The notes: generated by a model from the letters alone, not told the origin. Positions 3,776-26,455 are shown, numbered from the stretch's first letter. The stretch is DNA of 34,048 bases from Defluviitaleaceae bacterium (GCA_009781815.1 WQVB01000001.1:1-34048); one strand, 5' to 3'. Numbers and translations: made by a program.

Positions 3776-3809
3776 ATTTTCTCCTTATCTTTTTGAGCCT
3801 ACCCTACAC

Positions 3810-3989
3810 CCCTACCGTCATCCCGTGCCCTCACAGTTCGTCATCCTGAGCCCTTGGTCTTCCTGCTGTCGCAGGCAGAAGGGTAAGACTTGACTCAGGA
3901 TCTAATTGGAGAAGGGCAGGCTTAGTTGGGTGTCCACTATCATACATAGATCCTGAGTCAAGCTCAGGATGACGACTAGGAAGGGTGGG
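3810..3989. repeat. Composite repeat locus B: F1 unit (3840-3973) with a 38-nt F2 insertion in its left hairpin
   Basis: GTCATCCTGAG[CCCTTGGTCTTCCTGCTGTCGCAGGCAGAAGGGTAAGA]CTTGACTCAGGATC, then the conserved spacer, then GATCCTGAGTCAAGCTCAGGATGAC. It lies between the DUF512 stop and the der start. Confidence 0.85.
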
Positions 3990-4001
3990 ATGAGGTCATT
4001 A

Positions 4002-9043: not shown

Positions 9044-9910
9044 ATGGGTAAAACACAAAAAGGGCTAGGTAGCAAAGGGTTGGGTAGAGGCTTAAGTGCC
9101 TTGATAGCTCAATCTCCTGTAGAAAAAACATCTAGCGACAATATTTTAGAGATAGACATAAAAAAAATATACCCCAACGAAAACCAACCAAGAAAATATT
9201 TTAAAGCCCCTGAGATAGAGGAGCTAGCAGCATCTATAAAAGAGTTTGGCATTATACAGCCCCTAGTTGTTAAAAAAACTGGCGACAAATACATAATAGT
9301 TGCGGGGGAGAGGCGTTTTAGAGCCGCCACCCAAGCAGGCCTTAAAAAGCTGCCCGTTATTCTAAGGGAGTATAGCGACCTTGAGATACTAGGCATAGCC
9401 CTTATCGAAAACATCCAAAGAGAAGATTTAAACCCCATTGAAGAGGCAAACTGCTATAAACGCCTTGCTGATGAGTTTGGCATGACACAGGGTGAGATTG
9501 CAAAAAAAATAGGCAAAAGCCGCAGCCATATATCCAACTGTATGCGAGTGCTAAAGCTTGATGACACTATTTTAGATTTAATATCTTCAGAAAAAATAAG
9601 CATGGGTCATGCCAAAGCTATTTTGGCTGTAGAGTGCCCTGATTTTCAACTAGAGCTAGCCAACCGAGTTGTAGATGAAGGCTTAAACGTGCGTCAAACC
9701 GAAGAGCTATCTCGCACAAAGCCTACTGGCCAAGCTAAAAAAGCGGCCAAGCCTTTAAAAAAGACCTATGACCACTTTACAAAAGATTTTGGAAGCTTTT
9801 TTGGCACAAAAGTCGCTATTAAAGACAACAAAAAAGGTGGAGGTAAGATAGAGATAAACTACAGCTCCACCGCTGACTTAGAGCGTATAATGGAGATTAT
9901 TAAGAAGTAG
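9044..9910 (+). CDS. spo0J: ParB-family partitioning protein Spo0J
   Basis: ParB box VAGERRFRAA, IENIQREDLNPIEEA, and the HTH region TQGEIAKKIGKSRSHISN. Confidence 0.95.
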   Translation: MGKTQKGLGSKGLGRGLSALIAQSPVEKTSSDNILEIDIKKIYPNENQPRKYFKAPEIEELAASIKEFGIIQPLVVKKTGDKYIIVAGERRFRAATQAGLKKLPVILREYSDLEILGIALIENIQREDLNPIEEANCYKRLADEFGMTQGEIAKKIGKSRSHISNCMRVLKLDDTILDLISSEKISMGHAKAILAVECPDFQLELANRVVDEGLNVRQTEELSRTKPTGQAKKAAKPLKKTYDHFTKDFGSFFGTKVAIKDNKKGGGKIEINYSSTADLERIMEIIKK

Positions 9911-9931
9911 CTCTCCGATCTTCCCCTCAAT

Positions 9932-10052
9932 CCCTCCTAAGTCGTCATCCCGTGCTTGACACGGGATCTATGTATGATAGTGGACAACCTCAACTAGGAC
10001 TGCCCTTCTCCAATTAGATCCCGTGTCAAGCACGGGATGACGACTTAGGGGA
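9932..10052. repeat. Family F1 unit, CCCGTG/CACGGG stem variant
   Basis: CCTAAGTCGTCATCCCGTGCTTGACACGGGATC, the conserved spacer, then GATCCCGTGTCAAGCACGGGATGACGACTTAGG. Both hairpins carry the compensated stem. Confidence 0.9.
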
Positions 10053-10136
10053 GTTTAATGCCTTTTAGTTTTACTACAAGCCTAATGACGAAAGGTAGAG
10101 CGTTAGTCGAAATGGCAAGAGGGGCTGGGATGGTAA

Positions 10137-10796
10137 TTAAGAAGTAGTCTGCCTACGCAACACATCCAAAGCCTTACGGACGGATGGAAAGGCAACTATT
10201 ATGAGGGTAATCGCAACCTCCGCATAGATATACAGCCCGTTATACGCCATAGAAAACAACAAATAGCTACTCCACCCCTCAGGAGGCCACACCCGCACCC
10301 AAAAAGCATAGCCAGCAATGGTGTGCATCAGCCACCTGCCTGTAGCGGCAACTAAAAAGCCCATAGCCAAGCCGTTTCTCCTCTTGCTAAAAAACCCCGA
10401 AAGGCCAAGCATGCCAAAGGCTAGGGGGTAATCTAAAAACAGCTGTAGAGGGTGGATTATGCTAGGGTTAGCAGCAAGGCGTAAAAGCCCGAAGGACACA
10501 CCCGCCACAAGGCCAATGCCTGGGCCAAACCAAATACCCACTATGCTCACAAAAAACATAGACAATGGCGACACAGACCCGCCAAGAGGCATGGAGAAAG
10601 GCCTAAATAACGACAAAATAAAGGCAAGAGCCAAAGCCATGCCTGCATATACAAGGGTTTTTGTGCTTAGATTTGCTTTTTTAAACATTTTGCCACTTAT
10701 AGCGATAAAGGTGATGGTTGCCAGCAGCAACATAGCAAAAGAGCCTAAATCCGTACGTAATAGCCTTTGCAGCTCTGCACCTATTTCATAAAACAT
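10137..10796 (-). CDS. thiT: Thiamine ECF-transporter substrate-binding (S) component ThiT
   Basis: 219 aa with 6 TM segments and the motifs GGSVS, LQLFLDYPLAFG and GLSGFF. A TPP riboswitch lies directly upstream. Confidence 0.8.
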   Translation of the reverse strand: MFYEIGAELQRLLRTDLGSFAMLLLATITFIAISGKMFKKANLSTKTLVYAGMALALAFILSLFRPFSMPLGGSVSPLSMFFVSIVGIWFGPGIGLVAGVSFGLLRLAANPSIIHPLQLFLDYPLAFGMLGLSGFFSKRRNGLAMGFLVAATGRWLMHTIAGYAFWVRVWPPEGWSSYLLFSMAYNGLYIYAEVAITLIIVAFPSVRKALDVLRRQTTS

Positions 10797-11813: not shown

Positions 11814-11848
11814 CCGTCAAGTATGTAGGCGTGTACAAACCCAAGTGT

Positions 11849-12017
11849 CGTCATCCTGAGCCCTTGGTCTTCCTTCTGCCTGCGGCAGCAGGAAGACCAA
11901 GGGCTCAGGATGACGACTTAGGGAGGTTGAGAGGCTGCTTCGCTACAAGTCTATGCGGGCTTGATCCGCAATGACGATGTGAGTGCAAATCGGAATGACG
12001 TGAGCACGGGATGACGA
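11849..12017. repeat. Composite repeat locus E: 67-nt perfect long hairpin (F1 stem plus complete F2 palindrome), then F4 and F3-arm fragments
   Basis: CGTCATCCTGAGCCCTTGGTCTTCC (11849-11873) and GGAAGACCAAGGGCTCAGGATGACG (11891-11915) form a 25-bp perfect stem. ATGCGGGCTTGATCCGCAAT follows at 11953-11972. The locus lies between convergent gene ends. Confidence 0.85.
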
Positions 12018-18837: not shown

Positions 18838-19032
18838 CTGTCATCCCGTGTCAAGCACTCAAGCACGGAACACGTCAATCTAATTTGGAATTTTTGCCAC
18901 TGTAGGAAACGCATTTATGCGTTCCGCATTGCCTTGTTGAAGGATAAAAAGGTGCAAATTCAATAGCGGAATGGATAAATCCATTCCCTACAAGGTCAAA
19001 TTAGATTGGCGTGAGTACGTGATGAGGAGCGA
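18838..19032. repeat. Composite repeat locus H: F3 unit (18902-18991) nested in CGTCAATCTAATTTGG / CAAATTAGATTGGCG arms, themselves inside a split CCCGTG-type hairpin
   Basis: The left F3 hairpin is GGAAACGCATTTATGCGTTCC (compensated stem). The right one is GGAATGGATAAATCCATTCC. Confidence 0.85.
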
Positions 19033-19886: not shown

Positions 19887-20074
19887 ATTGCGGATCAAGT
19901 CAGCTAATAAACCTGTTGTTGAGTCGACCCCCTAAGTCGTCATCCTGAGCCCTTGGTCTTCCTGCTGCCGCAGGCAGAAGGGTAAGACTTGACTCAGGAT
20001 CTAATTGGAGGAGGACAAGCCTAGTTGGGTATGCACTATCATACATAGATCCCGTGTCAAGCATGGGATGACGA
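19887..20074. repeat. Composite repeat locus I: F4 half-hairpin remnant plus F1 unit (19939-20072) with the same 38-nt F2 insertion as locus B
   Basis: GTCATCCTGAG[CCCTTGGTCTTCCTGCTGCCGCAGGCAGAAGGGTAAGA]CTTGACTCAGGATC ... GATCCCGTGTCAAGCATGGGATGAC. The track ORF 19900-20097 is a translation of this repeat. Confidence 0.85.
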
Positions 20075-23040: not shown

Positions 23041-23147
23041 TATCGTCATCCTGAGCTTGACTCAGGATCTAATTAGAGAAGGGCACTCCTAATTAGGGTA
23101 CGCACTATCCCACATAGATCCTGAGTCAAGCTCAGGATGACGAGTAG
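23041..23147. repeat. Family F1 unit overlapping the 3' end of tmk
   Basis: GTCATCCTGAGCTTGACTCAGGATC, spacer CTAATTAGAGAAGGGCACTCC...CCACATAG, then GATCCTGAGTCAAGCTCAGGATGAC. The tmk stop codon (23089-23091) lies in the spacer. Confidence 0.9.
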
Positions 23148-23823: not shown

Positions 23824-24152
23824 ACCCCTAAGTCGTCATCCTCATCTCACGTCAATCTAATTTGGAACTTTTACCATTGTAGGGAACCCTGAATCAAGTT
23901 CAGGGCAGGCTCCTTTATGCGTTCCGCCTTGTCTCTCTGAAGGATAAAAAGGTGCAAACCCAATAACGGAATGGATAAATCCATTCCCTACAAGGTTAAA
24001 TTAGATCGACATTTCCCGTGCTTGACATGAGATTTATGTGGGTTAGTTCATATCCTAATTAAGGCTGCCCTTCCCTAATTAGATCCTGAGTCAAGCTCAG
24101 GATGACGACTTGGAAGGGTTGAGTGGCGTTTCGCTACAAGTCTAATGACGTG
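23824..24152. repeat. Composite repeat locus K: F3 unit (23879-23991) carrying an inserted CCCTGAA-TCAAG-TTCAGGG hairpin, a degenerate F1 unit (24012-24106), and a GCTACAAGTCTAATGACG fragment
   Basis: Direct reading. Outer arms are CCTAAGTCGTCATCC (23827-) and GGATGACGACTTGG (-24113). Confidence 0.85.
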
Positions 24153-26170: not shown

Positions 26171-26455
26171 GTCATCAGACCTGTAGCGAAACGACCCTAA
26201 GTCGTCATCCTGAGCTTGACTCAGGATCTAACTGGAGAAGGACGCAGCCCTAAAATATGGCATGCACTACCCCATGTAGATCCTGAGTCAAGCTCAGGAT
26301 GACGTAAGGGGGCACAGTTTTGCTACAGGTCTATTGCGGGCCCTTGGTTGAGCTTGGTTTTAAGCGAAACTTGATCCGCAATCCCCTTTCTAGTCTGAAT
26401 AATTCAGGAAGGAAGGGGATCCTGAATCAAACCTTGCCAAGGGTTCAGGATGACA
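26171..26455. repeat. Composite repeat locus L (last one in the window): F1 unit (26204-26303) inside AGACCTGTAGCGAAAC / GTTTTGCTACAGGTCT arms, then F4 hairpin with a 30-nt insertion (26333-26382), then CCTGAA/TTCAGG hairpin with a 12-nt palindromic insertion
   Basis: Direct reading of inverted repeats. Details are in the findings. Confidence 0.85.

Follow-up and report, generated by a model that had tools for sequence, protein, structure and literature searches.

The sequence analyzed here, a window of 34,048 nucleotides that represents contig C1 of a Defluviitaleaceae metagenome-assembled genome (MAG), contains at positions 3840–3902 a hairpin in which 38 extra nucleotides adjoin the loop, and the same 38 nucleotides recur at the corresponding place of a second hairpin farther along the window. 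How does a gene-less fragment of this size come to occupy a precise position within a hairpin, and is that position chosen anew or inherited? An initial annotation of the window, in which every quoted sequence is correctly located, proposed that insertions of one element into another always occur at the 5'-stem/loop junction of the host, so that hairpins of one family would be the preferred integration target of another.

The genome originates from a termite gut and has been recovered to the extent of 1.3 Mb in 209 contigs (69% complete, 43% G+C); its Der/EngA protein shares 80% identity with that of Defluviitaleaceae MAGs from the guts of higher termites, which have been described previously (PMC7024585). 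It contains about 700 REP/MITE-type hairpins with a TCAAG loop, and a genome scan recovers about 640 perfect hairpins with the loop TCAAG/CTTGA. The stems covary (ATCCCGTG, ATCCTGAG, ATTGCGGA/G, ATCCTGAA, ATCCCCAA) between constant flanks, GTCAT...ATGAC, and the majority of these hairpins form the inverted termini of MITE-like units of ~120 nt with the layout outer arm-CTTGA-inner arm ... inner arm-TCAAG-outer arm. The catalogue includes 196 units of the F1 family, the end stems of which match in 136 and are mixed CCTGAG/CCCGTG in 22. The pattern ATCCNNNNTCAAGNNNNGGATGAC occurs 484 times in this genome versus 0–6 times per genome in 19 other genomes of the family, and the hairpin burst is therefore lineage-specific. 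The F3 family comprises about 150 copies of a GTAG-tagged REP, [CT]TGTAGG-GAATGGA-TTTA-TCCATTC-CG, with GTAGG preceding more than 95% of the hairpins. An Rfam search of the window returned nothing beyond a TPP riboswitch (RF00059; 10844–10942, minus strand; 71 bits) located upstream of a thiamine transporter gene.

The hairpin at 3840–3902 is the left terminus of an F1 MITE-like unit. On the plus strand, it consists of the host outer arm GTCATCCTGAG (3840–3850), the 38-nt insert or module (3851–3888; TCTTACCCTTCTGCCTGCGACAGCAGGAAGACCAAGGG on the minus strand, where it is joined directly 3' of the loop TCAAG), and the loop CTTGA (3889–3893; TCAAG on the minus strand) followed by the inner arm CTCAGGATC, the two together spanning 3889–3902. 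The right terminal hairpin of the same unit (3950–3973, plus strand), ATCCTGAG-TCAAG-CTCAGGAT-GAC, is intact and provides an empty reference. The second 38-nt composite, at 19936–20000 on the minus strand, has the same organization, with an arm at 19936–19949, the module at 19950–19987, the loop at 19988–19992 and the other arm at 19993–20000. Genome-wide, the 38-nt module is present in 9–12 copies, all at the TCAA^G junction and in one orientation. It had been taken for a fragment of a complete 43-nt palindrome at 11861–11903, but the relationship is the reverse: the 38-nt sequence is the standard form, and the palindrome, which is perfect, unique in the genome and enclosed in a long hairpin with the arms GTCGTCATCCTGAG / CTCAGGATGACGAC (11847–11917, plus strand), is a derivative. 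The palindrome equals the 38-nt composite with the first 13 nt (TCAAGTCTTACCC, that is, the loop and the first 8 nt) changed to the complement of the last 13 nt, as would be expected from intra-hairpin template switching, or quasi-palindrome correction. In a sister lineage, which is introduced below, the flank of 11847–11917 carries a hairpin with an ordinary 31-nt module and a CTTGA loop.

Other nested structures of the window conform to this organization to different degrees. The F4-type hairpin ATTGCGGG/TCCGCAAT (26333–26382, minus strand) carries a 29-nt module (26341–26369; TTTCGCTTAAAACCAAGCTCAACCAAGGG on the minus strand) 3' of TCAAG (loop 26370–26374). At 26419–26454 on the plus strand, the hairpin ATCCTGAA/TTCAGGAT has the loop TCAAA, in which the usual G, at 26431, has become A, and the 12-nt module CCTTGCCAAGGG (26432–26443) comes after it. 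This module had been recorded as a palindrome lying inside the loop at 26431–26442; the insert is indeed there, but it is an ordinary 12-nt module at the usual junction of an altered loop, and TCAAG followed by CCTTGCCAAGGG has seven sister copies in the genome, all in CCTGAA hosts. In the GTAG-tagged F3 REP at 23879–23925 (plus strand), a 27-nt module that we denote type B, CCCTGAATCAAGTTCAGGGCAGGCTCC (23887–23913), replaces 4 nt of the 5' arm. Type B (CCCnnnnTCAAGnnnnGGGCAGGCTCC) is found in three identical copies in the GTAG-REP arm and elsewhere in the arm of F1 hairpins (17 copies), beyond the MITE end, or inside the 38-nt module; it follows no single junction rule, unlike the modules with a CCAAGG tail, so that its inclusion under the proposed junction rule was mistaken. 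Finally, at 18840–19032 on the plus strand, an entire REPIN-like F3 unit comes after the arm GTCATCCCGTG and TCAAG, and beyond it lies a degenerate 3' arm (TACGTGATGAG, 8 of 11 positions matching by eye). The nesting of whole F3 units within split hairpins, which had been described for 18838–19032, is thus seen in that case, but only one clean analogue exists genome-wide (C72, 142 nt).

To obtain a census of filled and empty hairpins, each TCAAG pentamer of the genome was scored with a symmetric test, in which 8 nt were taken on one side and their exact complement was sought within 80 nt on the other. Among all pentamers scored, there were 569 intact hairpins with exact 8-nt arms, and the inserts lay solely between the loop G and the 3' arm of the TCAAG strand, with lengths of 12 (5 copies), 29 (17), 30 (5), 31 (18), 38 (8) and 59 nt (2). 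At the opposite junction, the same test detected no real insert, the matches being chance occurrences or MITE units of two hairpins whose inner arm is mutated. When one arm mismatch was allowed and the search was limited to recurrent stems, the counts rose to 637 intact and 71 filled hairpins, without any further insert length and with an orientation ratio of 71:0 at TCAA^G; by a crude count, ~914 non-coding TCAAG pentamers outside the catalogued hairpins contained zero modules. The insert-in-hairpin pattern is therefore real and strongly non-random. All module copies are intergenic, and the strand bias relative to the orientation of the neighboring gene (24:17), which could have pointed to replication-linked insertion, is not significant. 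The module pattern was found in 0 of 400 other genomes of the order, and the relatives within the family that possess a few TCAAG hairpins have the short loop only.

The anatomy of the modules was derived from 59 distinct sequences of 28–31 nt. They belong to a superfamily in which a hairpin is enclosed between a G and a C and followed by a 5-nt tail; members of 12, 29, 30, 31 and 38 nt were found, each class with a fixed position and orientation, and the ends common to all inserts are T[CT]T[CT][AG]C... and ...[AG]ACCAAGGG. Because the base preceding the insert and the last base of the insert are both G, the insertion bond can be placed at either of two adjacent positions; the REP-loop copies described below fix the parse as one in which the module starts with G, ends with CCAAGG and lies at TCAA^G. 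From the outside inward, the module comprises a G-C closing pair, two pairs that switch together from T-A to C-G, an invariant TC/TC internal loop, a 4-bp stem with two covarying pairs, and a loop of 6–8 nt, followed by the closing C and the tail. In DNA folding of the composites, the host stem was recovered in all six cases and the predicted inner hairpin was recovered for the 29-nt and 35-nt composites, with different minimum-energy folds for those of 38 nt and 31 nt. Covariation of this kind, in which four pairs surrounding the invariant TC/TC mismatch change from T-A to C-G, would also be expected if the composites were selected structures, such as terminators, mRNA stabilizers or protein-binding sites, that exist as alleles rather than as mobile DNA, and the exclusively intergenic location would fit such a role. 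Nevertheless, we regard this explanation as very unlikely: the composites occur in both orientations relative to the neighboring genes, the TPP riboswitch is the sole Rfam match in the window, templated repair within hairpins can produce covariation as well, and turnover between lineages that are 92% identical is rapid and extends to the presence or absence of whole units. Stem covariation in repeats of this type thus does not necessarily imply a functional RNA.

Further contexts of the module core were sought with blastn-short using module consensus sequences, and a small number of site classes emerged. The first, A1, is the junction of the initial annotation, TCAA^G with the tail CCAAGG (module tail CAAGG), and accounts for the 71 copies of the census. 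Class A2 consists of 24 copies, all of 29 nt, at CTT^GA, in the arrangement outer arm-CTTG^[TTTCGC..CTCAACCTACGG]^A-inner arm, with the tail CCTACG (module tail CTACG); the A2 site is the complementary strand of the TCAAG loop, and the hosts are ATTGCGGA, ATCCCGCA and ATCCCCAA. About 12 copies occupy a single spot in the F1 spacer, ..CCCA^[G..CCAAGG]^CATAGATCC. In five copies, a 29-mer with the tail CCAAGG is nested within another 29-mer after CCAA^G; the signature CATCAAC of this 59-nt form is common to all five loci, which indicates a single origin followed by spread as a unit. Finally, a 35-mer with the same CCAAGG tail, GCTTTTGTTGCAGGCAAGCTGCAAGTCAGCCAAGG, is inserted at TAA^A in the loops of eight F3 (GTAG-REP) hairpins; with respect to the GTAG tag, 8/8 are oriented alike, and 7/8 are identical in sequence, across several flank contexts. 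The coupling between tail and strand is complete, in that the CCTACG tail never follows TCAAG and the CCAAGG tail never follows CTTG. The rule is accordingly loop-internal, with one bond per module type, and not always the 5'-stem/loop junction: the 71 filled hairpins do share that junction (which is 3' of TCAAG here, the initial annotation having read the other strand), but the A2, F1-spacer and REP-loop contexts lie outside it. Likewise, the notion that hairpins of one family are a fixed landing place for another is supported by the strict orientation of A1 (71:0), A2 (24 copies) and the REP-loop modules (8/8), but there is no rule that covers all nested forms.

A fixed junction could reflect repeated targeting or descent from a few insertions, and the distribution of modules across host stems bears on both. 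In the CCTGAG stem family, 185 copies are intact and 31 are filled, whereas the CCCGTG family is nearly module-free (2/226 versus 31/216; Fisher 1e-8), and the module subfamily is strongly associated with the host stem family (permutation P<0.0002). Because the subfamily is tied to the stem family, much of the module spread must be due to co-propagation or like-to-like copying rather than to fresh targeting. Taken further, this association raises the appreciable, if minor, possibility that there were few founding entries per context, after which filled and empty loops were exchanged between hairpin copies with shared arms, by template switching at stalled extruded hairpins or ectopic gene conversion between MITEs, with ordinary MITE transposition in addition. 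The fixed junction would then be mostly inherited, and the compensatory stem changes would come from intra-hairpin templated repair; the perfect palindrome at 11861–11903, with its signature of quasi-palindrome correction, agrees with such a history, as does the lack of a transposase that could be linked to the modules. Against it stands the occurrence of identical or near-identical modules in unrelated arms. An identical 29-mer is found in five stem families, its hosts including both F1 ends, a solo long hairpin, F4 and F5; when differences of 2 nt are tolerated, its hosts span three unrelated stem groups and no fewer than six contexts. Crossing of stem groups is also seen for the 38-, 30- and 31-mers, and the flanks of the REP-loop copies share 8–12 nt, which is too short for RecA-type conversion. 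By our count, at least about 14 independent entries would be needed to account for this cross-group spread, with bond and orientation identical in every one of them, and, even with few founders, the founding insertions at a precise loop position would still require a targeted step. When carriers were clustered by MITE spacer similarity, the result was null in each module class, with only the stem family giving a signal; in this test, which has weak power, carriers are not nearest relatives by spacer, an observation that we counted in favor of independence from the MITE lineage. Our conclusion is that there is a targeted step, the products of which are then multiplied by passive spread.

Further evidence comes from a sister lineage, represented by metagenome contigs that are 90–94% (~92%) identical to the genome and were reached by a contig scan and by protein clusters. 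In one scan of metagenome contigs, the termite-gut metagenomes Ga0131853 and Ga0123355 yielded 19 true module copies, the remaining matches being due to chance and lacking hairpins, and 19/19 obey the A1, A2 or nested rule. The comparison of interrupted and uninterrupted alleles, which had been suggested as a check, was productive, with two orthologous hairpins exactly empty in the sister lineage. At C38, GTCATCCCCAACTTG[29 nt]ATTGGGGAT in this genome corresponds to GTCATCCCCAACTTGATTGGGGAT in the sister, with identical flanks; at C170, GTAGGGAATGGAT[35 nt]TTATCCATTCC corresponds to an intact REP, GTAGGGAATGGATTTATCCATTCC, with conserved flanks. As read from the sequence, the direct repeats flanking the modules do not exceed 1 nt, so that the precise gain or loss cannot be attributed to slippage. 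The exact presence/absence at C38 and C170 leaves the direction of each event, gain or excision, to be inferred, and in this sense it is compatible with the view that the composite is ancestral and the short TCAAG loop derived through recurrent precise deletion of modules. We find that view very improbable, given that three to five different modules occupy one position in one MITE family and cannot all be ancestral, that slippage at repeats of at most 1 nt offers no route to the exact empty form, that the relatives have the short loop alone and the 400 genomes of the order lack the module pattern, and that intact hairpins outnumber filled ones 9:1.

Orthologous sites otherwise display a faster and coarser turnover that involves whole MITEs, units, families and spacers. 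At window positions 3776–4001, C66 and C7, the whole MITE is absent in the sister lineage, and no empty/filled pair of the TCAA^G class was found among these loci and 11847–11917; at 19939–20074, the sister contig ends early. The latter contig (L177:1000–1067) has an F1 unit in the same place with the spacer in opposite orientation and terminates before the filled hairpin, a difference that could be due to an inversion between the terminal hairpins or to an independent insertion. In the right hairpin of C38/L123, the stem apex (CCCCAA versus CCCGCA) and the module differ together between the lineages, and the differing combination of stem and module is also present elsewhere in the genome; such a joint change resembles the replacement of a unit rather than an insertion and speaks for exchange between hairpin copies, as does the remodeling of the interiors of orthologous hairpin units with the outer arms unmoved.

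Several additional differences were recorded between the two lineages. At window positions 9899–10147, this genome has a full F1 unit and additional sequence between two copies of TAAGAA[AG]TAG, and the sister (L174) has a solo hairpin, GTCATCCCCAG-CTTGA-CTGGGGATGAC, between the same two copies, so the duplication predates the split of the lineages and the block between the copies was remodeled. The F1 (CCTGAG) unit at 23041–23147 has in its place in the sister (L159:1–190) an F4 (ATTGCGGA) unit with an A2 module. A 152-nt composite at C27:~1086–1237, with GGGAGTG/CACTCCC ends and an ATTTTTA duplication, is cleanly absent from the sister (L151); this is a classical MITE-type insertion, and the host units behave as MITEs. 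Gene-content differences adjoin repeat clusters at C23:2720–3693 and C44 (versus L141 and L157), with ~970 nt extra in this genome and ~890 nt, including two small HTH-type genes, extra in the sister. The genome's own contigs often end inside repeat clusters, and pairs of them are joined by L116 and L141 from the sister lineage. Another assembly of this strain (ERZ27257300) shows 99.97% identity and no indels across 26.5 kb and therefore adds nothing to the comparison.

On balance, we lean, with some reserve, toward the interpretation that the inserts are non-autonomous mini-elements targeted to loops and perhaps moved as single-stranded DNA by an HUH/RAYT-like enzyme. Under this interpretation, tiny (12–38 nt), gene-less hairpin modules would repeatedly enter the loops of REP/MITE hairpins, with bond and orientation fixed. 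The host hairpin would be extruded as single-stranded DNA, a trans-acting enzyme would bind the module's own imperfect hairpin and join the module into the exposed loop without target duplication, and the filled composite would then spread passively, with the MITE and through copying between like hairpins. The most plausible enzyme would be an HUH/Y1 nuclease of the RAYT or IS200/IS605 kind: the lack of target duplication, strict orientation, loop target, mismatched hairpin and tail-strand coupling are best accommodated by single-strand chemistry of this type. Several observations weigh against it: by eye, no cleavage motif, C^T or other, is shared by the junctions, the modules lack the GTAG tag and have a single hairpin in place of the two ends of IS200/IS605 elements, and the strand bias relative to gene orientation is not significant.

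The genome encodes only one RAYT-like Y1 protein (C9:6879–7409; 176 aa, with the HUH motif HVHLI), which matches NF047646 with an E-value of 1e-17 and 64 bits, below the 80-bit NCBIfam cut-off, and Pfam Y1_Tnp with 23 bits. Two inverted GTAG-tagged F3 REPs lie directly upstream of the gene (C9:6780–7409) in a REPIN-like arrangement, which links this RAYT-like gene to F3 and not to the modules, and homologues with 38–47% identity are encoded in 13 of 20 genomes of the family, which lack the hairpin burst. In the recovered 69% of the genome, no lone module ends bracketing an ORF, as would be expected for a parent element, no reverse transcriptase and no TnpB were found. The E. coli TnpA-REP acts only on single-stranded DNA, requires a mismatch in the stem and catalyzes strand exchange (PMC3333891). 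A more specific scheme, which we consider doubtful, is that the module's own 5–6-nt tail would choose the strand and bond of the loop (CCAAGG for ..AA^, CCTACG for ..TT^), an element-encoded guide as in IS200/IS605 but carried on a single hairpin of 12–38 nt and dependent in trans on a domesticated RAYT-type nuclease; the modules would then be enzyme-dependent "loop splicers" and the smallest site-specific mobile DNAs yet in Bacillota.

The modules seem to rank among the smallest site-specific mobile DNAs known and, if truly mobile, would be near the lower size limit of site-specific elements, with 12 nt as the shortest. If the loop-targeting interpretation is correct, extruded loops of REP and MITE hairpins would be landing pads, which would explain the layered build-up of mosaic repeats such as BIMEs. 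The in vivo role of RAYT-type HUH enzymes is, to our knowledge, still an open question, and the modules and their loops offer clean, short substrates, in empty and filled forms, for tests of such enzymes. More generally, composite repeats in small uncultured genomes should be annotated with caution, as stacked separate elements and not as single families.

Several known systems resemble parts of this picture. Classical MITEs differ in that the modules have neither terminal inverted repeats nor target-site duplications, and an identity with integron attC or IS91-type elements is unlikely given the size of 12–38 nt. Insertion sequences that target REPs (IS1397, ISKpn1, IS621, ISPpu9/10, ISPsy8; PMC1525189) likewise use an extragenic repeat hairpin as a landing site, but are full-size elements with their own transposases of the IS3, IS110 and other families, whereas the modules are non-coding and only 12–38 nt long. 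With IS200/IS605 elements and PATEs, the modules share entry 3' of a fixed short sequence, the lack of target duplication and a single orientation; recognition of a hairpin on single-stranded DNA would be a further likeness to IS200/IS605, as would the apparent coupling of element sequence to target, CCAAGG with ..AA^ and CCTACG with ..TT^. The differences are that a module has one hairpin rather than two subterminal ones, measures 12–38 nt and not more than 100 nt, and has no TnpA/TnpB partner element among the sequences that make up the recovered 69% of the genome.

The REP/BIME-RAYT and REPIN systems are similar in their hundreds of intergenic hairpins, the GTAG tag and inverted doublets of F3, and the mosaics of hairpins and short extra motifs; two F3 REPs also lie beside the single RAYT-like gene, whose match is below the cut-off. 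The GTAG (or CGTC) tag, present at the F3 REPs, is absent from the modules and from the TCAAG-loop hairpins, which are a family separate from the GTAG REPs, and the modules lie inside loops rather than in linkers. We know of no loop-internal splicing of pieces shorter than 40 nt in the described anatomy of REPs and BIMEs. According to the published model for these repeats, small single-stranded pieces are excised and re-joined at alternative sites (PMC3333891, PMC3116915, PMC3733652).

In behavior, the closest known case appears to be the family of small dispersed repeats of cyanobacteria. Membership in that family (SDR1–8) was considered and rejected: the nearest loci are in termite-gut Defluviitaleaceae MAGs and not in Nostocales, and the sequences appear to be unrelated. 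SDR1–8 were reported by Elhai et al. in 2008 (Genome Res 18:1484) from Nostoc punctiforme and its relatives. One of them, SDR5, sits between nucleotides 3 and 4 of HIP1 (PMC4390886). Like the modules, SDRs are gene-less, shorter than 40 nt, precisely positioned and nested within their own kind, and for some of them nesting in mini-transposons is reported, as are a hairpin backed by compensatory changes and the lack of a known enzyme; these are likenesses of behavior and not of common descent. The two groups differ in phylum (Bacillota here, Nostocales for the SDRs), in length (12–38 nt versus 21–27 nt) and in target, which is the loop of a REP/MITE hairpin here and an octamer palindrome for the SDRs. 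Two orthologous empty sites and the coupling of tail to strand further distinguish the modules described here from their cyanobacterial counterparts.
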